A stretch of DNA of 16,858 nt, from the UHGV virus genome UHGV-0362799; one strand, 5' to 3'. Below the pieces are notes generated by a model. That model did not search any database and was not told where the DNA came from. It was given only the letters and a program-made list of their open reading frames with translations. The translations under genes and the position numbers were made by a program. Shown piece by piece: positions 188 to 16,137 of the stretch. Each line of letters opens with the position of its first letter. Position 1 is the first letter of the stretch. This DNA comes from a virus.

Positions 188-1054
188 ATGGCAGACAAGA
201 AACCTGAACGAAAAAAATTCCGCGTGGCCGTTTCCGGTCCAACCATCGACGGGCGCGAAATCAGTGGCGATATGCTGCGTGCCGCCGCGACTGACTACAG
301 CCAGGAGGTGTACGGCGCACGCGTCAATGTGGAGCACTGTCTTTCTTTTTTCCCCGGCGTGCTGGATGCGCTGGGGGATGTTGTTTCGCTGAGCGCAGAG
401 GACATCACTGACGGGCCACTGGCAGGCCGCACGGCGCTGTATGCCGAAATTGAACCGACTGAGCGCATGAGAAAACTGCTGGATGAAGGCAAAAAAATTT
501 ATTCCAGCATTGAGCTGCATCCGAAATTTGCACTGAACGGCAATGCATATGTGGTGGGACTGGCGATGACCGACACCCCGGCAAGTCTCGGCACTGAGCG
601 CCTGCAATTCGCCGCACAGCAGCGTGCGCAGGTGATGACGTTTAACAATCAGCAGTGTGAGCCGCCGCTGTTCACTGATGCTATTGAGGCTGAAATCATC
701 ACGCTGAACCAGCGCCAGAACGACGAAGGCGTTCAGTGGTTCGCGCGTGTCATGAACCTTATCAGCGGCGGGCGTAAAACGGACGGCGAACAGTTTGCGC
801 AGATGCGTGACGTTGTGGAGCGCGTGGCCTCTGCGCACGCTGACCTGCTTGACCGTTTCAACGCACAGGAGCGCCAGCGCGACGAAGACCGCGCACAAAT
901 CACCCGTCTGACCCGGGAACTGACCACGCTGCGTACACAGCTACAGGCACAGGACGGCGACCCGCATCAGCGTTTCTCCGCAACGGGCACTGACGCACCT
1001 GCTCACCCTGGCGTAACCGGCGGCGGTATTGCTTACACCGCCTGTGATTTCTGA
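188..1054 (+). CDS. O: Capsid scaffolding protein (P2 gpO family)
   Basis: ATG at 188 preceded by GAGGAG RBS; product begins MADKKPERKKFRVAVSGPTIDGREISGDML, about 288 aa, typical of gpO scaffold; sits immediately upstream of the major capsid gene. The six-frame ORF extends upstream to 53 but lacks an RBS there. Confidence 0.85.
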   Translation: MADKKPERKKFRVAVSGPTIDGREISGDMLRAAATDYSQEVYGARVNVEHCLSFFPGVLDALGDVVSLSAEDITDGPLAGRTALYAEIEPTERMRKLLDEGKKIYSSIELHPKFALNGNAYVVGLAMTDTPASLGTERLQFAAQQRAQVMTFNNQQCEPPLFTDAIEAEIITLNQRQNDEGVQWFARVMNLISGGRKTDGEQFAQMRDVVERVASAHADLLDRFNAQERQRDEDRAQITRLTRELTTLRTQLQAQDGDPHQRFSATGTDAPAHPGVTGGGIAYTACDF

Positions 1055-5638: not shown

Positions 5639-6257
5639 ACCGGATGCGGTTTTTCGCGACATTCTGGACGGGCTTTCCGCCGCCGGACGGGCGCGCACGG
5701 CGCGGGCTGTCGGGCAGGCGCTGCGTCAGAGCCAGCAGGCACGTATCCGCGCACAGAAGAACGCAGACGGCTCGCCGTATCCGGCACGAAAACGGCAGGT
5801 GATGCACACCCGCCGTGAAGTGAAGTTTGTGTGGAACGGCGAGGTCCGCACGCTGCGCCAGTGGGGACACAAGCGTTACCGGAGAGGCCGCGCCATCATC
5901 GGGCGCGACCCTGACCGTGGCGGCGCGCTGAGGACGTTTTACCGTGATGATATTGAGCGATACATCGCTGTATCGTCCATGTCTGCCCGTCAGACCAGCA
6001 AAAAAAGCACGCCGATGTTCGCGCGTCTTCGCACATACCGCTGGTTAAAAATGCGCTCAGATGCGGAAGGCGCTGTTGTGGGCTTCGATGGCCTGGCGGC
6101 ACGGATTGCCCGCGTGCATCAGGCAGGGTTACGCGACGAGGTGGCTCCGGGCGTGATGACCACCTACCCGGTGCGTGAACTGCTGGGTATAACCGCAGCC
6201 GACGAACGCCTGGTATATGACACGATTATCCGCTCCCTGAGGAGTGCGGCACGATGA
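5619..6257 (+). CDS. S: Tail completion / virion morphogenesis protein (gpS family)
   Basis: ATG at 5619 with AAGGA RBS 8 nt upstream, overlapping the R 3' end; 212 aa (longer than P2 gpS at about 150 aa); position R-S-V. Confidence 0.7.
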   Translation: MNTTSHEPDAVFRDILDGLSAAGRARTARAVGQALRQSQQARIRAQKNADGSPYPARKRQVMHTRREVKFVWNGEVRTLRQWGHKRYRRGRAIIGRDPDRGGALRTFYRDDIERYIAVSSMSARQTSKKSTPMFARLRTYRWLKMRSDAEGAVVGFDGLAARIARVHQAGLRDEVAPGVMTTYPVRELLGITAADERLVYDTIIRSLRSAAR

Positions 6258-6835
6258 CAGCGGAAATCATGCGACTGCTTGCAAACATCATCCGCACGGG
6301 CGTGATTTTTGCCGTGGACGAAACCACGTGGCGCGTTCGCGTGCGCAGCGGAGAGCTGGAAACCGACTGGCTGCGCTGGAACACACCACGCGCGGGCGCA
6401 TTCAGCGTCTGGCTGCCGCCTGCCGTGGGCGAACAGGTCATGATTGCCTGTATCAATGGCGACCCCGCAACCGCCACCGTCATCGGCAGTCTATGGAGCA
6501 GCGAACATCCTGCGCCCGGCAGCAGCCTGACGGAAATCGTGGTCACAGCGCCTGACGGCGCGGTGTTCCGCTACGATGCGGACGCAGGCGCGCTGAGCGC
6601 CAGCGGAATCAGAACCGCCACCATTCAGGCCGGAACGGGCGTGACGCTGGACACCCCCACCGTCACCTGCACAAATCATCTGAAGACGGCAACGTTTGAG
6701 GTGACAGAAGGCGGAACCCTGAGTGGCAATATCTCGCACAGCGGCGGTGATTTCACCTCCAACGGTGTGACGCTGCACACGCACAAACACAGTGGCGTGA
6801 AGAGCGGCGGCGACACCACAGGAGGCCCGCAGTGA
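6254..6835 (+). CDS. V: Baseplate spike/assembly protein (gpV family)
   Basis: ATG at 6254 overlaps the S stop (ATGA), RBS GAGGAG; 193 aa; C-terminal HTHKH motif consistent with the metal-binding HxH apex of gpV-type spikes. Confidence 0.85.
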   Translation: MTAEIMRLLANIIRTGVIFAVDETTWRVRVRSGELETDWLRWNTPRAGAFSVWLPPAVGEQVMIACINGDPATATVIGSLWSSEHPAPGSSLTEIVVTAPDGAVFRYDADAGALSASGIRTATIQAGTGVTLDTPTVTCTNHLKTATFEVTEGGTLSGNISHSGGDFTSNGVTLHTHKHSGVKSGGDTTGGPQ

Positions 6836-7197
6836 GTGCACGTTTTCTGGGGATGAACCCCGAAGCCCCCGGCGCGCTCAGCGATACGGACCATCTGTGG
6901 AACAGCGTGAGGGATATTCTGCTGACACCGCTCGCCAGCCGGGTGATGCGCCGGGAATACGGCAGCCTGCTGCCGGATTTGCTGGATGCACCGATGAATG
7001 CCACCACCCGCCTTCAGTGCATGAGTGCCGTGGTGATTGCCCTGACGCAGTGGGAGCCGCGCATCGCCCTGAATGCCGTTGATATTCAGTGGGAGGCGGG
7101 CGGAAAAGCCGTTATCACTCTCACCGGCACGCTGACAGAAAGCCTGGAAACCGTACAGAACACACTGACACTCAGGAGCGACAATGCCAGCCGTTGA
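6832..7197 (+). CDS. W: Baseplate wedge protein (gpW / gp25-like)
   Basis: GTG start at 6832 overlapping the V stop (GTGA), RBS AGGAGG 7 nt upstream; product begins (M)SARFLGMNPE..., similar to the P2 gpW N-terminus MTARYLGMN; 121 aa. Confidence 0.85.
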   Translation: MSARFLGMNPEAPGALSDTDHLWNSVRDILLTPLASRVMRREYGSLLPDLLDAPMNATTRLQCMSAVVIALTQWEPRIALNAVDIQWEAGGKAVITLTGTLTESLETVQNTLTLRSDNASR

Positions 7198-8080
7198 CCT
7201 GTCGGAACTGCCGACACCACAGATTATTGAAACGCCGGATTTTGAAGTCATCCTGGCGGAGGTAAAAGAAGACATCATTACGTCATTTCCACAGACACAG
7301 CAGGCTGCCATCCGGTCAGCCATGGCGCTCGAGTCCGAACCGCTCACGGTCATTGCCCAGACTTTTGCGCTGCGTGAGTTGCTGCTTCGCCAGCGAATTA
7401 ATGAAGGGGCAGCGGCCTGTATGCTGAGCCATTCCACGGGTGACGACCTGGATAACCTCGCCGCCAACATGAACACCGCGCGGCTGGTCATCACTCCGGC
7501 CACGGATACCACGGAGGCCGTCATGGAAAGCGACACAGCCCTGCGGCTGCGTGCACAGTCTGCGTTTGATGGCCTCAGCGTGGCCGGCCCCACCGGGGCG
7601 TATGAATATTTTGCCCGCAGTGCCAGCGGTCAGGTGGCGGACGCGCGCGCAACCAGCCCCGCACCGGCGGAAGTCGTGGTGGCGGTGCTGTCCACAGAAG
7701 GCGACGGCACGGCGACCGAAGCACTCCTGACGATGGTCAGAAATGCGCTGAATGCCGAAGACGTTCGCCCGGTCGGTGACCGCCTGACGGTGCAGAGTGC
7801 AGAAATCATCCGGTATCAGATTGATGCCCGGCTTTACTTTTATCCGGGGCCGGAGTCGGAACCCATCCTGAATGCCGCCAGAAACAATCTGGAAACCTGG
7901 CTTGCCGAACAGGGCAAAATCGGTCGCGATGTGGCGCTCTCCGCCATCATGGCCGCGCTGCATGTTCAGGGCGTTCAGCGCGTGGAACTGACCAGCCCCG
8001 CACAGAATATTGTTATCAGTGATGTGCAGTCAGCGTACTGCACATCGTTCACGGTCAGCGCAGGGGGAACCAATGAGTGA
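7184..8080 (+). CDS. J: Baseplate assembly protein (gpJ family)
   Basis: 298-aa ORF, RBS AGGAG; size and position match P2 gpJ (about 302 aa). Confidence 0.9.
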   Translation: MPAVDLSELPTPQIIETPDFEVILAEVKEDIITSFPQTQQAAIRSAMALESEPLTVIAQTFALRELLLRQRINEGAAACMLSHSTGDDLDNLAANMNTARLVITPATDTTEAVMESDTALRLRAQSAFDGLSVAGPTGAYEYFARSASGQVADARATSPAPAEVVVAVLSTEGDGTATEALLTMVRNALNAEDVRPVGDRLTVQSAEIIRYQIDARLYFYPGPESEPILNAARNNLETWLAEQGKIGRDVALSAIMAALHVQGVQRVELTSPAQNIVISDVQSAYCTSFTVSAGGTNE

Positions 8081-8612
8081 ACCGTCACTGCTCCCCCCTT
8101 CAGCCAGCGATTTCATGCGCTGCGTGGAGCGGGGGGCTACCCGGTTGTCAGCACTACCTGTCAGCCTTAATCAGCTCTGGGATCCTGACACCTGCCCGGT
8201 GGCCCTGCTGCCTTATCTGGCGTGGGCGCTGTCCGTGGACAGGTGGGATCGTGACTGGACGGAAGAAACAAAGCGCCAGGTGATCCGTGATGCCTGGGCT
8301 ATCCACCGCCATAAGGGAACCATCAGCGCCATCAGGCGTGTGGTTGAACCCTTTGGCTATGTCATTAACGTGACGGAATGGTGGGAAACCGGCGATCCGC
8401 GAGGGACTTTCCGGCTGGACATCGGTGTACTGGATACCGGTATCTCCGCTGCGACCTATACCGAGCTGGAGCGCCTCATCGATGATGCCCGCCCGGTGAG
8501 TCGCCATCTTACCGGATTAAATATTGTGCAGGACATTTACGGGGATGTGTACGTCGGCGGGGCTGTATTTTGCGGCGACACTATTGAGGTTTATCCGGGA
8601 GAGGTTGTCTGA
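8073..8612 (+). CDS. I: Baseplate/tail protein I (gpI family)
   Basis: Internal ATG at 8073 (MSEPSLLPP...) overlapping the J 3' end by 8 nt; about 179 aa, matching gpI size and position. Confidence 0.85.
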   Translation: MSEPSLLPPSASDFMRCVERGATRLSALPVSLNQLWDPDTCPVALLPYLAWALSVDRWDRDWTEETKRQVIRDAWAIHRHKGTISAIRRVVEPFGYVINVTEWWETGDPRGTFRLDIGVLDTGISAATYTELERLIDDARPVSRHLTGLNIVQDIYGDVYVGGAVFCGDTIEVYPGEVV

Positions 8613-8614
8613 AT

Positions 8615-11461
8615 ATGAAATATGGTGCCATTATCACAGCGGCTGGCGCTGCCAGGCTGGCTGCGGCCACAACAGCAACAGGCCAGAAGCTGAACATCAC
8701 TCACATGGCCGTGGGAGATGGTAATGGAAATCTCCCGGAACCATCGGCCTCACAGGCCGCCCTGATCAATGAAGTCTGGCGCGGGACGCTGAATAAAATT
8801 ACACAGAACAGCAAAGCGCCAAATCAGGTGATTGCGGAACTGGTTATTCCTCCGGAAGTTGGCGGCTTCTGGATGCGGGAGCTGGGGTTGTATGACGACA
8901 GCGGAACCCTGATTGCCGTCGCCAATATGGCAGAAAGCTACAAGCCGTTACTCGCCGAAGGTTCGGGGCGCTCAATGGTCTGCCGCATGTTCATCATCAT
9001 CAGCGATATGAACGCGGTGAATCTGTCAGTGGACAGCAGCGTCATTGCCGCAACACAGGAATATGTTAACGAAGCCATCTCCGGCCTGCACCGCGCCATC
9101 ATTGATGATGTGGTTCTTCAGCATAAAGTTGTCCACGATATTGACTACGCCGGTATTTTTGACGGCGCGGATAAGATGAGTCAGGGGTTCTGTATCTGTG
9201 ATACGCCGCAGGGAACCAGAATGTTTCTGCATCAGCCTGTATCGGGTGGCGTAAGGATTGTTGAAACGACATTTAACCCTGACGGAGAAAACGAAAACCC
9301 GACGGTCATTTCGTTTTCTCCCGTTTTCGCTGATATTGGTCACCAGAGTATCGGGGCTGTATGTGAAGACGGTCGCGTGATGCTGTATACCCCGACCGCT
9401 GACGGCAAGGGTGTGAATATCATCAACTGGAATGGGGCTGACACCAGTCTGACAGATGTCACCCGTACGGAGATTTTCACCTCTGACTTTTTTACCGGGG
9501 ATGAAATTATAACGGTGGCATTGTCGGCAGACGGAAGCCTGTTGATTGTTCAGTCAAGTAATGAAGCCGTCCATCTTCATTACAACAGGGATGACCGCCG
9601 CACAGTTTATGTTTTCGATCGCGCTTCTCTGACGTTTAAACACCGGATTTATCTGTCCACCCAGTCAATGGTGTCGCAGGCATTTCAGGGGATGGCCAGC
9701 GATGGTCATTATCTGTTTGCTTATTACGGTTATACAGGCGTATTTCTGACTCACCGCATTGTTGTATATAACCTGTCAACGGGCGAAGTTGTCAGACAGT
9801 TCAATGTGGATGGCGTTCGTGCCAGGTATGGCCGCCAGAAAATGCTGGGGAATGCAGAGCTGGGGTATCCCGTTTTGCAGGAAGCCGAAGGGCTGGCTCT
9901 CCATAACGGAAAACTGTATCTGCTCGATATGGATTTCTGGTGTCAGACAGCCGATGTGGTTTCTTTTGAGGGGGCATACTTTGCAGCACGTGCAACAAAT
10001 TTTTCTGGCCGTTCCCCGGTGAATCCATCTTACTGGACGCCTACAGCATATGGAACGGCGGCTGCAACGAAATATGATGCCACGAAGTCTTATACGTGTG
10101 GCGTGGCGACAAAACGCAGCAAAGCTGTGGTTTCCGTGGAGGCTTACGACGGCACAGGCTATCTGGTGGACTCCGGCGTGGCGTTTCCTGACAGCCATGC
10201 CAGCCTTTTTCTGAGTCCCAATGCTGTAAATATTGCCCTGTCACCCAATGAAGACTTCCAGGTGGCAGCCTATGAGCAGAATCTGCGCTCGCATCGCCCG
10301 TTATTTGAGGTCAGAAAGGAGGCTCCGGATACAGACACTTCTGCTGCTGTTTTTCGTTTGTTCGGGGATGCGTTCCGAACCGGAGAATACACAGGCCGCT
10401 ACGTTCAGTGGAAACACCGACTGAACGCCGTGCACGATTGTCTGGAAATACGCGCTGACGTGGATTTGTTGAGCGGTGGCGGGATTAACCTTTACTCAAT
10501 GAACGATACTCAGTCGGCGGGACGCACAAGGCTTTATTGCACCGATGGCAGTGAAACCTGGTCTGTATTATTGAGTCCGGTCTCGCCGTCATTTCATCCC
10601 GACCAGGACAAGGCAATGAATCTGGGGTCATCGCCAAATCGCTGGAATGTGGCATACCTGCAGGGCGTGAATATTAAATCGGATGACGAAACCCAGAAGC
10701 GCATGACCATCAGCACCACGCTGAAGGCGGGAGCTTTCCAGGTATCAACAGTCGGGAATCTGGGTATTTATGACGATTCTGCTGACGCTTATGTAATTGC
10801 AGCCCGTAGTGACGGCACTGCATTCATGCAGATGGATACAGATATTAACGGTGCATTCCGGCCATCGGTTAACAATACCAGCGACCTGGGTGCGCCCAAC
10901 AAAGCGTTCCGGAGCGTGTATCTCTGCAACTCGCCGACCGTTGTGTCGGATGCGACGTTAAAGGATACACCGCGCGATGCGACGGCAGCCGAAAACGCGG
11001 CATTTGCAGAAATAGCACGGCTTCCGGGCGTGTGGCGCTGGTTACAGAGAATTGAGGAGGAGGGCGAGGACGCGCGTCTGCACGCCGGGCCGACAGTCCA
11101 GGCCGCGATAGCCGTGATGGAGAAACACGGTCTGGACTGGCGGAAATACAGCGCATTTTGTCTGGATTCGTGGGAAGCGGAGGAGGCACAGTACGAAGAT
11201 ATACCGGAAGAGTATGAAGATATTCCGGTTCAGCCAGCGATTTATTCGGATGAAGGGGAGCTGTTGAGCGGGACAACCCGTGTGCTTACCCGACAGGCGG
11301 AAAGGGTTCTTGTTCGCCCTGCAACCGAAGCAGGAAGCCGTTATCGCTTCCGGAAAGAGGAGCTTCTCTGGTGGTGTCTGCGTGCTGTTGTCAGCCAGGT
11401 GGATGCGCTGACAGAGAGTATCAGCGCACTTACCCGCCGTGTTGATTTACTGGAGGAATAA
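8615..11461 (+). CDS. H: Tail fiber protein (gpH family N-terminus; divergent central region; C-terminal intramolecular-chaperone-like domain)
   Basis: 948 aa. N-terminal about 160 aa carries the conserved gpH block ...MAVGDG...ELVIPPEVGGFWMRELGLYDDSGTLIAVANMAESYKP. The rest diverges from P2 H. The C-terminal about 170 aa begins SDATLKD and ends in a predicted helix, resembling peptidase S74-type self-cleaving chaperone domains. Confidence 0.9.
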   Translation: MKYGAIITAAGAARLAAATTATGQKLNITHMAVGDGNGNLPEPSASQAALINEVWRGTLNKITQNSKAPNQVIAELVIPPEVGGFWMRELGLYDDSGTLIAVANMAESYKPLLAEGSGRSMVCRMFIIISDMNAVNLSVDSSVIAATQEYVNEAISGLHRAIIDDVVLQHKVVHDIDYAGIFDGADKMSQGFCICDTPQGTRMFLHQPVSGGVRIVETTFNPDGENENPTVISFSPVFADIGHQSIGAVCEDGRVMLYTPTADGKGVNIINWNGADTSLTDVTRTEIFTSDFFTGDEIITVALSADGSLLIVQSSNEAVHLHYNRDDRRTVYVFDRASLTFKHRIYLSTQSMVSQAFQGMASDGHYLFAYYGYTGVFLTHRIVVYNLSTGEVVRQFNVDGVRARYGRQKMLGNAELGYPVLQEAEGLALHNGKLYLLDMDFWCQTADVVSFEGAYFAARATNFSGRSPVNPSYWTPTAYGTAAATKYDATKSYTCGVATKRSKAVVSVEAYDGTGYLVDSGVAFPDSHASLFLSPNAVNIALSPNEDFQVAAYEQNLRSHRPLFEVRKEAPDTDTSAAVFRLFGDAFRTGEYTGRYVQWKHRLNAVHDCLEIRADVDLLSGGGINLYSMNDTQSAGRTRLYCTDGSETWSVLLSPVSPSFHPDQDKAMNLGSSPNRWNVAYLQGVNIKSDDETQKRMTISTTLKAGAFQVSTVGNLGIYDDSADAYVIAARSDGTAFMQMDTDINGAFRPSVNNTSDLGAPNKAFRSVYLCNSPTVVSDATLKDTPRDATAAENAAFAEIARLPGVWRWLQRIEEEGEDARLHAGPTVQAAIAVMEKHGLDWRKYSAFCLDSWEAEEAQYEDIPEEYEDIPVQPAIYSDEGELLSGTTRVLTRQAERVLVRPATEAGSRYRFRKEELLWWCLRAVVSQVDALTESISALTRRVDLLEE

Positions 11462-11463
11462 TT

Positions 11464-11748
11464 ATGGACTTAACACCGGTGTTCCATGCACTTTGTGCGG
11501 TGGCCGCTCAGTTTCTGGTTGGTCTTTTTACCGGAAACTGGGCTTACGGAGCGATAGCCGGTTGTACGTTCTTCATTGCGCGTGAACACACCCAGGCAGA
11601 ATATCGCTGGATTGAAATGTTCGGGCATGGCAGGCGTATGAATATGCCGTGGTGGGGCGGTTTTGACCCACGAGCGTGGGATATGGCAAGTCTGATGGAT
11701 TTTGCAGTGCCGGTGGTGGCATGTCTGCTGGTCTGGCTGGTCGTATGA
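11464..11748 (+). CDS. Small hypothetical membrane protein, translationally coupled to the tail fiber gene
   Basis: ATG 3 nt after the H stop with excellent RBS GGAGGA 6 nt upstream; 94 aa with two hydrophobic segments (residues about 6-39 and 77-94) flanking a Trp/Arg-rich loop; followed directly by a terminator. No family recognised. Confidence 0.6.
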   Translation: MDLTPVFHALCAVAAQFLVGLFTGNWAYGAIAGCTFFIAREHTQAEYRWIEMFGHGRRMNMPWWGGFDPRAWDMASLMDFAVPVVACLLVWLVV

Positions 11749-11760
11749 CGTAGCAGGAAA

Positions 11761-11785
11761 CAGGGGGATTTGCCCCTGTTTTTTT
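11761..11785 (+). terminator. Rho-independent terminator ending the fiber operon
   Basis: CAGGGG-GATTTG-CCCCTG hairpin followed by TTTTTTT, 13 nt after the stop of the 94-aa gene. Confidence 0.7.
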
Positions 11786-11786
11786 G

Positions 11787-11930
11787 TTCAGAATGCAGCC
11801 TTCACCATTCGTCTCTAATCGTATTCAGTAATTCGCCCGCAGAAACAAACTAAAATTCATCCCCCGCATCACGCCACTGAAAGCAGACGGTAAACTCCAG
11901 ATTTTCAAACCAGCGTCAGAAGTATTTAAA
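11787..11930 (-). pseudogene. Degenerate remnant of a gpU 3' end (frameshifted fragment)
   Basis: About 70-80% nucleotide identity by eye to 12569-12705, the 3' end of the intact U gene. Reverse translation gives ...SAGELLNTIRD then a 1-nt deletion relative to U (...SAGELLNALKDKMPVAAF*). No start codon and no upstream part of the gene. Confidence 0.55.
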
Positions 11931-12151
11931 TGGCACCAGATGTAATATGCAGGCGATTAATATGGTGTGCTTAAAGATCATAAAAGCGGGCAACATTAAA
12001 ACTCCGGGCTGTGTAAATTACCGCCACTCATAATCAGAGATGAAAACAGAATTAAACTGGCGGAGTGGATTGTATACATAAAATAAGTTCAGTTGTTGAC
12101 TTTCACTTCCGTGAATTGATGAAGGTTATTACAATACATCGGTATGATCTC

Positions 12152-12176
12152 TCCTCCTTAAAAGGGAGGACTTTTT
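12152..12176 (+). terminator. Candidate intrinsic terminator
   Basis: TCCTCCT-TAAAA-GGGAGGA hairpin followed by CTTTTT. Confidence 0.45.
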
Positions 12177-12193
12177 AGAACGCAGAAATTATT

Positions 12194-12256
12194 TATAATC
12201 CCGTAGTGTTCTATACATGCAAACATTCTTTTTCCGCCCCGTGCGGGCTTTTTTTT
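12194..12256 (+). ncRNA. Candidate small transcription unit S1 (-10 TATAATCCC to short GC hairpin plus T8)
   Basis: TATAAT at 12194-12199 with AT-rich upstream region; GC stem 12236-12248 followed by T8 (12249-12256); predicted transcript about 50 nt; no convincing ORF or RBS. Confidence 0.25.
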
Positions 12257-12324
12257 GCCGCAAAGATACAGTAACAAACAAAATTGTAATCATGGCAATC
12301 AAAACACGAGAAACATTTTCAGCA

Positions 12325-12353
12325 ATTGCAATAACAAATTAAAATATTGCAAT
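12325..12353. promoter_or_regulatory. Two perfect ATTGCAAT palindromes spaced 21 bp centre to centre (operator-like); a third, imperfect, ATTGTAAT lies at 12283-12290
   Basis: ATTGCAAT at 12325-12332 and 12346-12353; the second overlaps the -35 of the S2 promoter; ATTGTAAT is centred 42 bp upstream of the first. Confidence 0.35.
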
Positions 12354-12376
12354 TGACAATCCCCGCTTAATATAAT
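12347..12376 (+). promoter_or_regulatory. Candidate sigma70 promoter (TTGCAA-N18-TATAAT)
   Basis: TTGCAA 12347-12352 and TATAAT 12371-12376; an alternative -35 TTGACA at 12353-12358 gives only a 12-bp spacer. Confidence 0.4.
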
Positions 12377-12382
12377 CCCTTC

Positions 12383-12444
12383 CGGAACATAGAACATTAA
12401 ATCTTCACACAATGCATGTTGCCCTCTTTATGAGGGCTTTTTTT
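12383..12444 (+). ncRNA. Candidate small RNA S2 (promoter to terminator, about 60 nt)
   Basis: Predicted start about 7 nt after the -10; ends at the GCCCTC-TTTAT-GAGGGC plus T7 terminator (12421-12444); only a 30-aa ORF without RBS runs through the terminator. Confidence 0.3.
12421..12444 (+). terminator. Rho-independent terminator
   Basis: GCCCTC / GAGGGC stem with 5-nt loop followed by TTTTTTT. Confidence 0.65.
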
Positions 12445-12537
12445 ATTTCCAGAATATCACCATTGCCATCATCGGGCGATTTATATATAGTCAGAATGTA
12501 TTGACAACATTTTGCTTCTTTTCCATGAAGGCCATAA

Positions 12538-12567
12538 GGGAGTGCTTTTTACACTCCCTCTTTTTTT
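12538..12567 (+). terminator. Rho-independent terminator (+ strand) abutting the U stop codon
   Basis: GGGAGTG-CTTTTTA-CACTCCC followed by TCTTTTTTT. In the - orientation the hairpin is followed only by UUAU, so it acts mainly on + strand transcription heading into U antisense. Confidence 0.65.
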
Positions 12568-12569
12568 AT

Positions 12570-13028
12570 TCAGAATGCAGCCACAGGCATTTTGTCTTTA
12601 AGCGCGTTCAGCAGTTCGCCCGCAGAAGCAGACTGAAACCGCTCTCTCATATCCTCATCACACCGCTGAAAGCTGATGGAAAACTCAATCTTTTTTGCCT
12701 TTCCGTAACGATCCAGCTCGGAGCGGGTGGTCTGTAATCCTGTAATCACGTACATTCCGTAAATCTGCCCCGTGCCATCAATCAGCGGCCAGGGACATCC
12801 GGTGTAGGCCTGGGTGTTCAGCAGTGTCAGTGACACCTCACCACCGGTAATTTCCGGGTACAACAGACCGGACAGCGTGATCTGATCGTCACCTGCGCCA
12901 ATATACTGCCAGGCCGCAGAGCGGTTAATGCGCTCATTTTTCACATGTCGCCATGTTTTGCTCTGCTGGATCTGCTGATGCGGAAGCGTTTTCAGCTCAA
13001 ACACAAACATGCCAAAAATCATCATCAT
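12570..13028 (-). CDS. U: Tail protein U (gpU family)
   Basis: 152 aa, starts MMMIFGMFVFELKTLPHQQIQQSKTWRHV...LSGLLYPEITGG, recalled as the gpU family signature; RBS AGGAGA upstream; directly downstream of the tape measure gene. Confidence 0.85.
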   Translation of the reverse strand: MMMIFGMFVFELKTLPHQQIQQSKTWRHVKNERINRSAAWQYIGAGDDQITLSGLLYPEITGGEVSLTLLNTQAYTGCPWPLIDGTGQIYGMYVITGLQTTRSELDRYGKAKKIEFSISFQRCDEDMRERFQSASAGELLNALKDKMPVAAF

Positions 13029-13041
13029 AATTGCGTCTCCT

Positions 13042-16000
13042 TTAGTCCCTGTCGCGGAAGCTGTTCATGCCTGTACGCGCCTGTCTGCGCATCTCTTCGC
13101 GGACGGCCTCACCAACCAGTTTTGCCAGTTCGCGCGGATTCTGTGTGTTGACGTTGTGCAGATGTACATGTATCTCACCGGAAAACGCAGCCGCCTGCGG
13201 CTGTGGCGCAGCTTCCCTTCTGGCCGCATCCGGTCGCAACGGGGGCCGGATAGCCTCCGCGACGGGAGCGGAAGCCATTACCGCCCCCGTCATACCTTCA
13301 GCCACGTTACGCGGCTGCGGCAGTGCGGAGACCTGGCGGGCCACGTTCACAACGGGAGCGGGGGCACTCACCGCAGGGGTGGGCAGTACACCTGTCAGTC
13401 TCTGCCAGAGCATTGTCAGTGCATCCGTCAGCCCTACGCCCGCCGATACCGCCTGCACCGTCCGGACAACCTGCGGTGCTTTCCACTCGCCGTGAATGAT
13501 TTCGGATCCGGGCAGATTTTTGAAAACAATATCGCCGGGACCGACGCGCCTGCGTGTTTCCTCAAGAAGCCCGCCGGTGTTGCTGGCGGTTTTCTGTATC
13601 CCCTGCCGGAACCATGCCTCATCCAGCGGGGATTTGCTGCCGGGTTTGCCGACCGGATTGTCCGCCGTTCCCCTCACCTCTCCGGGAACAGCAGGGGCAG
13701 GTACTGCGGGTTTATTGTCACCGTTGTTTTCCGCTGCATCTGATGACCACGACCATGGTTTCTGCACCATTTTTTTCTGTGCAGGATCCCACTCCCACGC
13801 AACCGGCGCTTTTTGTGTGGCCTGTTTTGCGGCGCTCTCCTGGAGTTTTTGCGTCTCCTTCTGTGCCTCTTTGATGCCGTCCGGGATGACACCCAGCCAC
13901 TTCAGCACGGTACCGAGGCCATCAAGGAGCAGCGTCAGCGGCCCCAGCACAATGTTCTGAATGACCCACCCCAGCGTTTTCCCGAACGACTCCCCTGCAC
14001 TGGTGCATTTGTCGAGCGTCTCTTTTGAGGCGTTCGCAGGTTCAAGCAGGCGGGTGAACCACTCCCACACGGCTTTGATGCCGTCGCCAATCAGCCCGAA
14101 CACCGGAGCCAGCGATGCAAAGGCTTGCCGCAGCGGTTGCAGCGCCTCCCACACTCCGGCAAAAAAGCCGGAAAAAAACGCGCTGATCTGATCCCAGTAT
14201 TTCCACACCAGAACCGCGCCGCCCACCAGGGCGGCAACAATCAGCCCGACCGGACTGAACAGCGCCCCCAGTGCGCCCCCCAGTACCGACACCGCCCCCG
14301 TGACCAGCCCCCACAGCGCAGGCAGCCCCGTCAGGCGCAGTGCCATCGCAGACACAAGCCGGACAGCACCACCAATGCCACCGCCCCCCGTCAGCAGCCC
14401 CAGTCCCAGTTGCAGTTTTGCCAGTGGCCCCGCAATCAGCCCGAGCGTCAGTGACAGCGCACCGAACGTGGAAGACAGCGCCAGAACACTACCGCCGGTC
14501 AGCACCAGCCCCCTGACCAGCGCCTGGTGCTCTCCGACCCATTCGCGCATCCGGGTCATCCACGCGCTCACCGTCTGAACCAGCCCGCGCAAATCCTCCG
14601 TCACTGTACCGAAGATGTCCGTGCGTAGCCCTGAGAACGCACCACTCAGCGCCTGAACATCGCCGGAAAGATTACCGCGCAGTGTCTGCCCCATGCGGTC
14701 TGCCACGCCGCTGACATCACCCAGGTTGTCACGGACATCAGCCAGCGCCCTCAGGAACTGCGGGATCTGGTCAACGGAAAGGTCTTCAACGGGTGTGCCG
14801 AACAGCGCAATGGCCGTGTTCGCCCGCTCTGCCGGGTCACGGATGGCCAGCAGTGCACGGGCGGTCACCTGCATCGCCTGACGAGCAGTGCTGCCTCCCT
14901 GTGCAATGGCAGCAGACACCCGCTCAGCATTCAGGCCGAGAGTCTCATACGCTGAGACACTGGATTTCGACATATCCGAACCCCGGATGCTGAACTCCTT
15001 CACGGCATCGCCGGTTTTGTCCAGCGCAAACTTGCCCTGCTTTGCCATCTCAACCAGCAGACTCATTGTCTCGCTGCCGGTGAAGCCCATGTTGCGGAAG
15101 TGGGTGGAATACTCGTGCAGAATTTCCGGCAGTTCATCGCGCATTTCAGCGGACATACGCTGCATCCCTGCCGTCATCAGGTTAGTAGCCTCGTCACTGC
15201 TGGCAGCCAGCCCGTTCTTCATCATGATGGCAGCGGCCTGAATGCTCTGCGGCACATCAACACCAAAGACGGTCCGCATATCCAGCGCACGACGGCTGAT
15301 GCGCTCCAGTTCCCGGTCGCCGGTGTCGCCCAGTGCGCCGAGCGTACTGCGTACCGCACTCACAGCCTCCGCAGCACCGGCAAAATCAGCGAGACCGTCA
15401 GCCTGTATGTTACGAATAATGTGGGTGTAACGTGCGCCATCCTGTGCGCCTTCCCCCGAACCGGCTGCGATGACCGCACCGTGCTGTTCGGACTCCATCG
15501 CCGGAGCCATCATACGCTGCGCCGCATACAGGCCGCCTGTACCCGCCGCCATCGCCACAGCCCCTGTGTTGCGCAGTTTTTCCGCCTGTGCCTTCGCGGC
15601 CTCATAGCGGCTCTGTGCCTGCGTCACGCGAGCCAGTGCCTGCCGTTCGCGCTCGAGCTGCTCGTTGTACTGCTGTGTACGGCGAACGGCACTTTCAATG
15701 GTGCGGCTGCTGCCGGAAAGCAGAATGCCGTGTTTGCGCATTTCCCCTGCCGCCGCCTGAAGTTTTTCGCGCTCACGCGTGCGCAGCTCGTTCAGGCGCT
15801 CAAGCCGTGCAGACAGCGCCGTCATCATCTCCCGCTGCTTTTCAGAGAGGGTGTTGCCGTTCTGCTCTGCCTTTCGCAGTCCGGCGAGCCTCTGCTCCGC
15901 GCGGGCAATCTGTTCGCGGTATTTACTGAGATTTCCGGCGGCACGTTCGAACACCTTCGACTGCCTGTCGAGCGTCTGTATGTTGTCCTGCGTCTTCTGA

Positions 16001-16137
16001 AGGGATTCAGTGAGAGCGCCCACCTGACGGCGGGCGTTTTCGGTCGGGCGTGTCAGCCGGTCAATTGCGCCAAAGCTGACACGAATATCAAGGGATTTCA
16101 CTGTTGCGGACTCCGCTGCGTTGCGCCGCCCGCTCAC
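13042..16137 (-). CDS. T: Tail tape measure protein (gpT family)
   Basis: 1031-aa ORF, GTG start; coiled-coil-rich N-terminus, Gly/Ala-rich hydrophobic central block and Pro/Ala-rich C-terminus, typical of tape measure proteins; position E/E'-T-U. Confidence 0.9.
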   Translation of the reverse strand: MSGRRNAAESATVKSLDIRVSFGAIDRLTRPTENARRQVGALTESLQKTQDNIQTLDRQSKVFERAAGNLSKYREQIARAEQRLAGLRKAEQNGNTLSEKQREMMTALSARLERLNELRTREREKLQAAAGEMRKHGILLSGSSRTIESAVRRTQQYNEQLERERQALARVTQAQSRYEAAKAQAEKLRNTGAVAMAAGTGGLYAAQRMMAPAMESEQHGAVIAAGSGEGAQDGARYTHIIRNIQADGLADFAGAAEAVSAVRSTLGALGDTGDRELERISRRALDMRTVFGVDVPQSIQAAAIMMKNGLAASSDEATNLMTAGMQRMSAEMRDELPEILHEYSTHFRNMGFTGSETMSLLVEMAKQGKFALDKTGDAVKEFSIRGSDMSKSSVSAYETLGLNAERVSAAIAQGGSTARQAMQVTARALLAIRDPAERANTAIALFGTPVEDLSVDQIPQFLRALADVRDNLGDVSGVADRMGQTLRGNLSGDVQALSGAFSGLRTDIFGTVTEDLRGLVQTVSAWMTRMREWVGEHQALVRGLVLTGGSVLALSSTFGALSLTLGLIAGPLAKLQLGLGLLTGGGGIGGAVRLVSAMALRLTGLPALWGLVTGAVSVLGGALGALFSPVGLIVAALVGGAVLVWKYWDQISAFFSGFFAGVWEALQPLRQAFASLAPVFGLIGDGIKAVWEWFTRLLEPANASKETLDKCTSAGESFGKTLGWVIQNIVLGPLTLLLDGLGTVLKWLGVIPDGIKEAQKETQKLQESAAKQATQKAPVAWEWDPAQKKMVQKPWSWSSDAAENNGDNKPAVPAPAVPGEVRGTADNPVGKPGSKSPLDEAWFRQGIQKTASNTGGLLEETRRRVGPGDIVFKNLPGSEIIHGEWKAPQVVRTVQAVSAGVGLTDALTMLWQRLTGVLPTPAVSAPAPVVNVARQVSALPQPRNVAEGMTGAVMASAPVAEAIRPPLRPDAARREAAPQPQAAAFSGEIHVHLHNVNTQNPRELAKLVGEAVREEMRRQARTGMNSFRDRD

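Follow-up and report, generated by a model that had tools for sequence, protein, structure and literature searches.

A P2-like phage genome encodes a predicted modular tailspike with a five-bladed propeller head in place of the P2 tail fibre

What does a P2-like phage carry in its tail fibre position when the gene found there resembles the fibre of P2 at the N-terminus only? The question is raised by the virus genome UHGV-0362799, a stretch of DNA of 16,858 nt that was analysed as a whole and is called the window below. A preliminary description of its letters had pointed to an open reading frame (ORF) whose product begins like P2 gpH and continues with about 600 residues that show no resemblance to the fibrous P2 H shaft. 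It had suggested that this part is globular, perhaps a beta-propeller, and that it could be a new receptor-binding or glycan-degrading module that would determine the host range. The follow-up analysis, in which sequence families, structure models and related genomes were compared, leads to the answer that the gene encodes a modular, presumably trimeric tailspike in place of the P2 fibre. Its architecture is very likely that of a gpH-type adaptor followed by a propeller head, a stalk and a C-terminal S74 chaperone (Table 1).

The position of the gene is clear from its neighbours. In a Pfam scan, Baseplate_J (7184-8080) and Tail_P2_I (8010-8612) directly precede the ORF, so that it takes the place of gpH in a P2-like late operon. 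Prophages of Escherichia coli with a homologous backbone (96-98% identity) carry the usual P2 annotations, namely scaffold, capsid, terminase small subunit, lysis genes and V, W, J and I. The N-terminus itself matches PF12571 (Phage_tail_fib, the P2 gpH N-terminus) over residues 2-148 with 182.5 bits (E 6e-54). The sequence as such is already known, being held by RefSeq under generic names (homologues are labelled 'phage tail-collar fiber domain-containing protein') and by PHROG 19921, 'tail spike protein', which covers the whole 948-residue ORF with 2057 bits. For residues 160-737, searches of Pfam, NCBIfam and the PDB sequences returned nothing at threshold.

The fold of this central part was approached by structure prediction. 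A first AlphaFold2 run on 12 sequences reached a predicted local distance difference test (pLDDT) score of 65 overall and was confident for the first ~350 residues only. An exhaustive HMMER search then provided 141 cluster representatives, of which 95 had E <= 1e-10, and a second model was built from a 44-sequence alignment of these. This model of residues 160-532 (pLDDT 91.8, predicted template modelling score 0.91) is made of five sets of four antiparallel strands and thus represents a five-bladed propeller, whose blade 5 is probably closed by the N-terminal strand of residues 168-176.

The propeller had been suggested from recurrent Asp-Gly motifs, and the model gives these a precise place. 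All six strings singled out in the preliminary description were located in the translation, the four of the Asp-Gly type being CEDGRVMLYTP (residues 250-260), SADGSLLIVQSS (304-315), ASDGHYLFAYYG (361-372) and HNGKLYLLDMD (430-440). The underlying pattern (D, N or Q, then G, one or two residues of any kind and at least four hydrophobic ones) occurs four times in residues 160-460 against 0.26 expected, and four occurrences were reached in none of 5000 shuffles. The spacing of the four motifs, 51-68 residues, equals one propeller blade, and in the model they form the strand 1-2 turns, that is the first hairpins, of blades 2-5, the equivalent in blade 1 being TPQGTRMF. The motifs do mark the blades, and the region after the gpH N-terminus turned out as unlike the P2 H shaft as had been thought: over its first ~350 residues a propeller was modelled where a beta-helical shaft might have appeared, and common P2-type fibres did not emerge as its homologues.

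The kinship of this propeller lies with phages of other hosts. The model superposes on Gp45 of Staphylococcus phage phi11 as a five-bladed propeller of four-stranded antiparallel blades, and its best matches among predicted viral structures are the tail fibre of phage R4596 and the neck appendage protein of phage GA-1. Homology of the head, at the superfamily level, to the 'platform' of the receptor-binding proteins (RBPs) of Gram-positive phages (phi11 Gp45, NF5 RBP, GA-1 gp12) is strongly supported. In Pfam this platform is described by PF21311 (Phage_RBD_prop), to which phi11 Gp45 itself scores 395.6 bits. The family is matched at E <= 0.01 by 6 of the 44 aligned members (best 5.9e-6), and the window protein scores 13.4 bits where the cutoff is 23.7 (E 0.059), in blade 4 only; the coliphage proteins are therefore placed in a divergent branch of the same superfamily, outside the limits of the Pfam family. 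When the PDB was searched with the family profile, NF5 RBP was reached at E 0.016 only and 5efv was not recovered. In the literature searched, a statement of this kinship between the coliphage family and the Gp45-type Gram-positive platform, pocket included, was not found.

The pocket in question is suggested by conservation. Conservation among about 140 relatives is highest at Q190-G191, R214, H243, K265, W272, Q358-G359, E423, E425-G426, W442, W474, Y493 and K503. Five polar residues among them are at or just ahead of the innermost strand of blades 1, 2, 4 and 5 and are almost without exception retained: Q190 in 122/124 sequences, H243 in 133/135, Q358 in 127/138, E423 in 141/141 and E425 in 138/141. 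The topology of a propeller would place them around one mouth of the central channel, as a putative sugar pocket. A weak hhalign alignment of the family with phi11 Gp45 (E 0.019, probability 2.4%) pairs H243/S245 with H209/T211 and Q358 with Q330, and within it the blade 5 string QEAEGL is identical between the window protein (421-426) and Gp45 (384-389); Q190 was paired with Gp45 Q165 by eye, both lying just upstream of the aligned span. In Gp45, Gln165, Thr211 and Gln330 line the cavity proposed for N-acetylglucosamine (GlcNAc), a sugar carried by teichoic acid of the wall (Koc et al., PMC4901313).

At the other end of the protein, a domain was found that the preliminary description had overlooked. 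PF13884 (Peptidase_S74, 'chaperone of endosialidase') matches residues 778-840 with 38.1 bits (cutoff 22) and marks the protein as a self-folding tailspike. The solved chaperones of several spikes, T5 pb1 among them, align with residues 738-869, and the PDB matches to this region are 4uw8 (1.4e-14), 7y5s (1.1e-12), 6eu4, 9vvr, 3gw6 and 3gud. Around the S-D-x-x-x-K sites, residues 759-783 align residue by residue with T5 pb1 (4uw8), 7y5s and 6eu4, and S778-D-A-T-L-K783 presents a Ser-Lys dyad at +5, preceded by a G...R/K...(V/A)Y motif. The +5 spacing of S74 chaperones is known from the endosialidase endoNF. The region delimited in the preliminary description (9110-10945) corresponds to residues 166-777, and position 10945 is the final base ahead of Ser778, the predicted autocleavage residue.

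This also changes the meaning of two LG(S/A)xPN(R/K)...Y strings, LGSSPNRWNVAYL (residues 670-682) and LGAPNKAFRSVYL (758-770), which had been counted as part of the globular domain and which belong instead to the trimeric stalk and the chaperone junction. Both units, 88 residues apart, fit a motif found ahead of S74 chaperones in relatives, and compared directly they are only modestly alike, with a local score of 33 where shuffles gave 23 +/- 4.3. In P0057 (703 residues, motif at 564-588) and other distant relatives, the motif aligned to the first copy directly precedes the S74 domain; in the subfamily of the window, about 88 residues and a second copy with the Ser778/Lys783 site come after it. 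Since the equivalent of the first copy abuts the chaperone there and the second copy holds the site here, the first copy is best read, on this alignment, as a relic junction inside the stalk, and its Ser689 and Lys695 are spaced at +6, not +5. Mention of such a relic was not found in the literature searched. The low pLDDT of the stalk is what a monomer model should give for an obligate trimer. For the intermediate domain ahead of it, residues 521-655, Pfam and PDB sequence searches gave no match. Two relatives of 50% identity, P0046 and P0047, keep the propeller and the first junction motif and have a short Gly-rich C-terminus (...GSPEGV...GTGNTGW) in place of the S74 chaperone, and thus the module occurs also without a built-in chaperone.

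From these parts a course of adsorption can be proposed. The gpH-type N-terminus would dock the spike on the P2-type baseplate, and the S74 chaperone would drive trimerisation of the stalk and then cleave itself off at Ser778. The mature spike (residues 1-777) would adsorb the virion when a sugar of the surface polysaccharide docks in the propeller-mouth pocket of Q190, H243/S245, Q358, E423 and E425, as proposed for GlcNAc in Gp45, and variable loops around the invariant pocket may give the specificity. In our analysis, a binding-only mechanism, lectin-like and reversible, is given about an even chance, and simple binding is taken as the default because it is the only activity described for the solved relatives.

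Several points weigh against this proposal. The ring around the channel mouth follows from propeller topology alone, the hhalign link to Gp45 is faint, and in Gp45 itself GlcNAc was modelled only, as soaking failed and the sugar was never seen bound (PMC4901313). The window protein stays below the PF21311 cutoff, residues 521-777 are poorly modelled, and the first run gave no usable model for residues 520-778. Furthermore, a His/Glu/Glu/Gln set that is invariant across hosts with different receptors resembles a catalytic or structural core more than a site of specificity, and the module serves as the main spike of short-tailed phages.

The last two points argue for catalysis, in which the same architecture would use the pocket as an active site. 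The propeller would then process glycans as a glycosidase, lyase or deacetylase, cutting or stripping the O antigen or capsule and so opening the way of the virion to the outer membrane, as classical tailspikes do. The chances of this alternative are judged to be somewhat below even, only slightly less than those of simple binding. No enzymatic activity is described for Gp45 (PMC4901313), and none is reported for the NF5 RBP and the P68 fibres either (PMC4901313, PMC12917162). The propellers of glycosidases (GH43/32/62/68) are only 5-10% identical to that of the window, and their catalytic motifs were not found in it. E423 and E425, which share a strand (i, i+2), may just as well have a structural role or bind a cation. 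A bolder form of the catalytic reading, that the Gln/His/Gln/Glu/Glu pocket may be the active site of an unrecognised class of phage glycan-processing enzymes spanning phi11 Gp45, P68, GA-1 gp12 and a large family of coliphage tailspikes, is considered rather unlikely; if it were true, Staphylococcus proteins now regarded as pure binders would be enzymes too.

The module starts at 'IIDDVxLQHK' (residue ~162), and in relatives the downstream part is fused to other adaptors, including PF18668 (TSP1/Gp66_N), PF03906 (T7 tail) and PF09008 (P22 head-binding). Its GC content is 0.49-0.54 against 0.58-0.66 in the backbone, and a comparison with E. coli AR_0085, whose prophage has the same backbone and another fibre, delimits an exchangeable cassette (Table 1). 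These findings support the host-range module on a P2-type baseplate that had been foreseen, and they make it a swappable one. The idea that the module is new was not upheld, as it is contained in PHROG 19921, is 80% identical to the tail spike of phage Pollock and is present in prophages of E. coli B and of sequence type 131 (ST131). The gene was found in 88 of 5426 complete E. coli genomes, 86 of which hold at least 80% of it at 95-99% identity. At 99% nucleotide identity, the module occurs in E. coli B (REL606 and others), E. coli C, an O7:H4 strain and pig isolates. The REL606 spike, of 952 residues and 91.6% amino-acid identity, lies within a defective P2-like prophage. This defect and an IS3 insertion that breaks the copy of strain 2-1 would suit a decaying prophage gene without present function, a reading that we regard as very improbable: the window ORF runs uninterrupted through 948 codons and keeps all motifs, the 86 genomes maintain the gene at high identity, and the same module works in lytic phages.

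An endosialidase-type capsule depolymerase of family GH58, which would have a sialidase propeller of six blades and act specifically on K1 polysialic acid, was considered as well. The overall layout parallels endoNF, PF12219 gives weak matches (14.9 and 19.5 bits) and is matched below threshold at residues ~658-684, and the family profile matches the stalk end of the phi92 endosialidase (4hiz). The five-bladed model and the family scans, in which no GH58 sialidase domain (PF12217/PF12219) was found, contradict it, so that its probability is judged to be minimal. A conventional P2-type fibre with a beta-helical shaft, a small distal tip and a separate assembly chaperone is scarcely credible, for the PF12571 N-terminus and the position after gpJ and gpI are outweighed by the confident propeller model, by the built-in S74 chaperone without a gpG/Tfa homologue next to it, and by scans that found no fibre or beta-helix families. 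A right-handed beta-helix depolymerase was also considered and rejected, as neither AlphaFold2 model contains such a fold and no pectate-lyase-type Pfam match was obtained.

As to the receptor of the predicted tailspike, a single O antigen was tried as a candidate. A chimeric query of the spike module and O16 wzy gave two matching places in 36 of the 60 best carriers, read as the spike and an O16-type wzy, with KFu014 and strain 2-1 ambiguous because they already have two spike places each. The carriers include isolates labelled O25b:H4-ST131 with an O16-type O-antigen locus. In one genome labelled 'O25b:H4-ST131' (NZ_OX637961.1; locus L005, 13466-20455), the O-antigen cluster is of the O16 family (wzx, glf, wzy, wbbI-L), which we take to be the cluster expected for ST131 clade A (O16:H5), and the organism label is thus misleading on the serotype. 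The assignment to O16 was rejected: near-identical copies occur in O16, O7 and rough strains, which means that a single O antigen is not necessarily the receptor, and since the excess of O16 is confounded by clonal descent, no receptor can be named. Receptor data were not found in the paper on ST131 phages.

Some observations on related prophages accompany these findings. In REL606 (locus L006, 9581-10693), a GT2 glycosyltransferase gene and a small ORF come after the spike on the opposite strand, possibly a moron that modifies surface glycans (lysogenic conversion). This gene is a hint of a glycan as the receptor, which the prophage may modify; no trace of the gene was found in the window, where the AT-rich spacer was searched for a remnant. 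The 7 kb of window 6094-13179 (V-W-J-I, spike, spacer and gpU) are 95% identical to a diverged ST131 prophage (L001) whose other genes are ~66-74% identical (about 68% outside the block), which indicates that the whole adsorption block was exchanged between two P2-like lineages. The closest match to the full window, in strain 2-1, has an IS3-family element in the propeller-coding part (L003, 10092-11304, equivalent to window ~9590), and its spike is split into annotated fragments.

Table 1. Features of the tailspike gene and its surroundings in the window.
Feature	Residues	Window position	Strand	Basis or remarks
Tailspike gene	948 plus stop	8615..11461	+	ORF list and translation; gpH slot of P2-like late operon
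N-terminal baseplate adaptor, P2 gpH-type 'tail-collar fibre' domain	1-156	8615..9082	+	PF12571
Five-bladed beta-propeller (predicted)	168-458	9116..9988	+	AlphaFold2 model
Propeller blades 1-5	192-234, 247-286, 297-347, 357-398, 417-458		+	
Invariant polar residues at innermost-strand entry, putative sugar pocket	Q190, H243, Q358, E423, E425	9182..9889	+	Codons 9182-9184, 9341-9343, 9686-9688, 9881-9883, 9887-9889
Extension packed on the propeller	459-520	9989..10174	+	Conserved W474, Y493, K503; high pLDDT to model residue ~360
Beta-rich intermediate domain, fold uncertain	521-655	10175..10579	+	First AlphaFold2 model: ~8 strands, pLDDT 58-67
Trimeric stalk (predicted), holding both junction motifs	656-777	10580..10945	+	Monomer model pLDDT < 50
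Putative relic junction motif, GSSPNRWNVAYLQGVNIKSDDETQK	671-695	10625..10699	+	Pre-chaperone pattern; G671 kept in 65/66 sequences
Functional junction motif, GAPNKAFRSVYLCNSPTVVSDATLK, predicted dyad Ser778/Lys783	759-783	10889..10963	+	Alignment with 4uw8, 7y5s, 6eu4
C-terminal intramolecular chaperone, predicted release after trimer folding	778-948	10946..11458	+	PF13884
Exchangeable cassette relative to same-backbone prophage with another fibre		8513..11460	+	E. coli AR_0085 (96%) is homologous up to 8513 and again from 11460
Hydrophobic ORF in the slot of P2 gpG	94	11464..11748	+	phrog_1443, function not assigned, 9.4e-56

Downstream of the spike gene, Pfam and PHROG scans found no gpG/Tfa homologue, and the next ORF encodes the 94-residue phrog_1443 protein, for which neither Pfam nor NCBIfam gave a match. 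Its identity is 81% behind the other fibre in AR_0085 and 69% in REL606; being conserved behind different fibres, it is a gene of the backbone and not of the spike cassette. Between this ORF and the gpU-like gene on the opposite strand, ~820 bp (11749-12570) are without an ORF of at least 60 residues, with GC content down to 0.36 and seven terminator-like hairpins against 1.3 +/- 1.3 expected, the first of them (11763-11777) right after the 94-residue ORF. Rfam has no match in the window, this spacer included, and its equivalent is unannotated in ST131 and other genomes too. The gpU-like gene and the tape measure gene (1031 residues) follow on the minus strand at 12570-16137, convergent to the spike operon. 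The tail tube/sheath block of the window is inverted relative to the tail-gene order of P2, and in REL606 the sheath gene comes next on the strand of the spike. The length of the tape measure gene among near relatives is 2808, 3051, 3096 or 4008 nt.

The P2-like prophage family whose host range is set by this predicted tailspike occurs both in laboratory E. coli B and among pandemic ST131 isolates of the O16 type, and near relatives of the spike module arm lytic ST131-specific phages. Knowledge of the receptor of the spike and of whether the propeller cuts it would aid the prediction of phage-host pairs and the engineering of phages and tailocins, and the link to the Staphylococcus RBPs gives a testable pocket for both groups.

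Among known systems, propeller heads are recognised as a class of phage spikes, though one that is poorly understood (PMC12491483). With phi11 Gp45 (PDB 5EFV; PF21311; relatives in NF5 and P68) the spike shares the five-bladed platform propeller at only 15% identity. Gp45 has a coiled-coil stem and two tower domains, which are absent here, whereas the window protein has the P2 gpH adaptor, the beta-rich domain, the stalk and the S74 chaperone; the host of Gp45 is Gram-positive, and that of the window phage is Gram-negative and without teichoic acid. GA-1 gp12, the neck appendage of a Bacillus phage (chaperone domain 3GUD), can be recognised by sequence, with 22% identity in the propeller (tblastn E 8e-15), a predicted-fold match of E 2.8e-26 and the same order of propeller head and S74 chaperone. 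It differs in its phi29-type collar attachment adaptor and its Gram-positive host, and a published description of its central domain was not found. The same module with the same chaperone is carried by the tail spike of the N4-like Escherichia phage Pollock (80% amino-acid identity over residues 162-745) and by the tail fibres of the T7-like phages vB_EcoP_R4596, CC1 and CC2 (51% over the same residues). These phages differ in being lytic and in having podovirus-tail adaptors (PF18668, PF03906), and CC1 and CC2 infect only ST131 within the panel tested (PMC10433417). The endosialidase tailspikes (K1F endoNF, phi92) are alike in layout, with an adaptor, a propeller head, a stalk of homologous end and an autocleaved S74 chaperone, but their head has six blades, being a GH58 sialidase propeller into which a lectin barrel is inserted, in contrast to the five-bladed head of the window spike, which has no sialidase signature. 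P2 gpH, finally, agrees with the window protein in its N-terminal domain and gene position and differs in everything beyond residue ~160, and the gpG-type chaperone gene of P2 is without a counterpart after the window spike, which carries a chaperone of its own.

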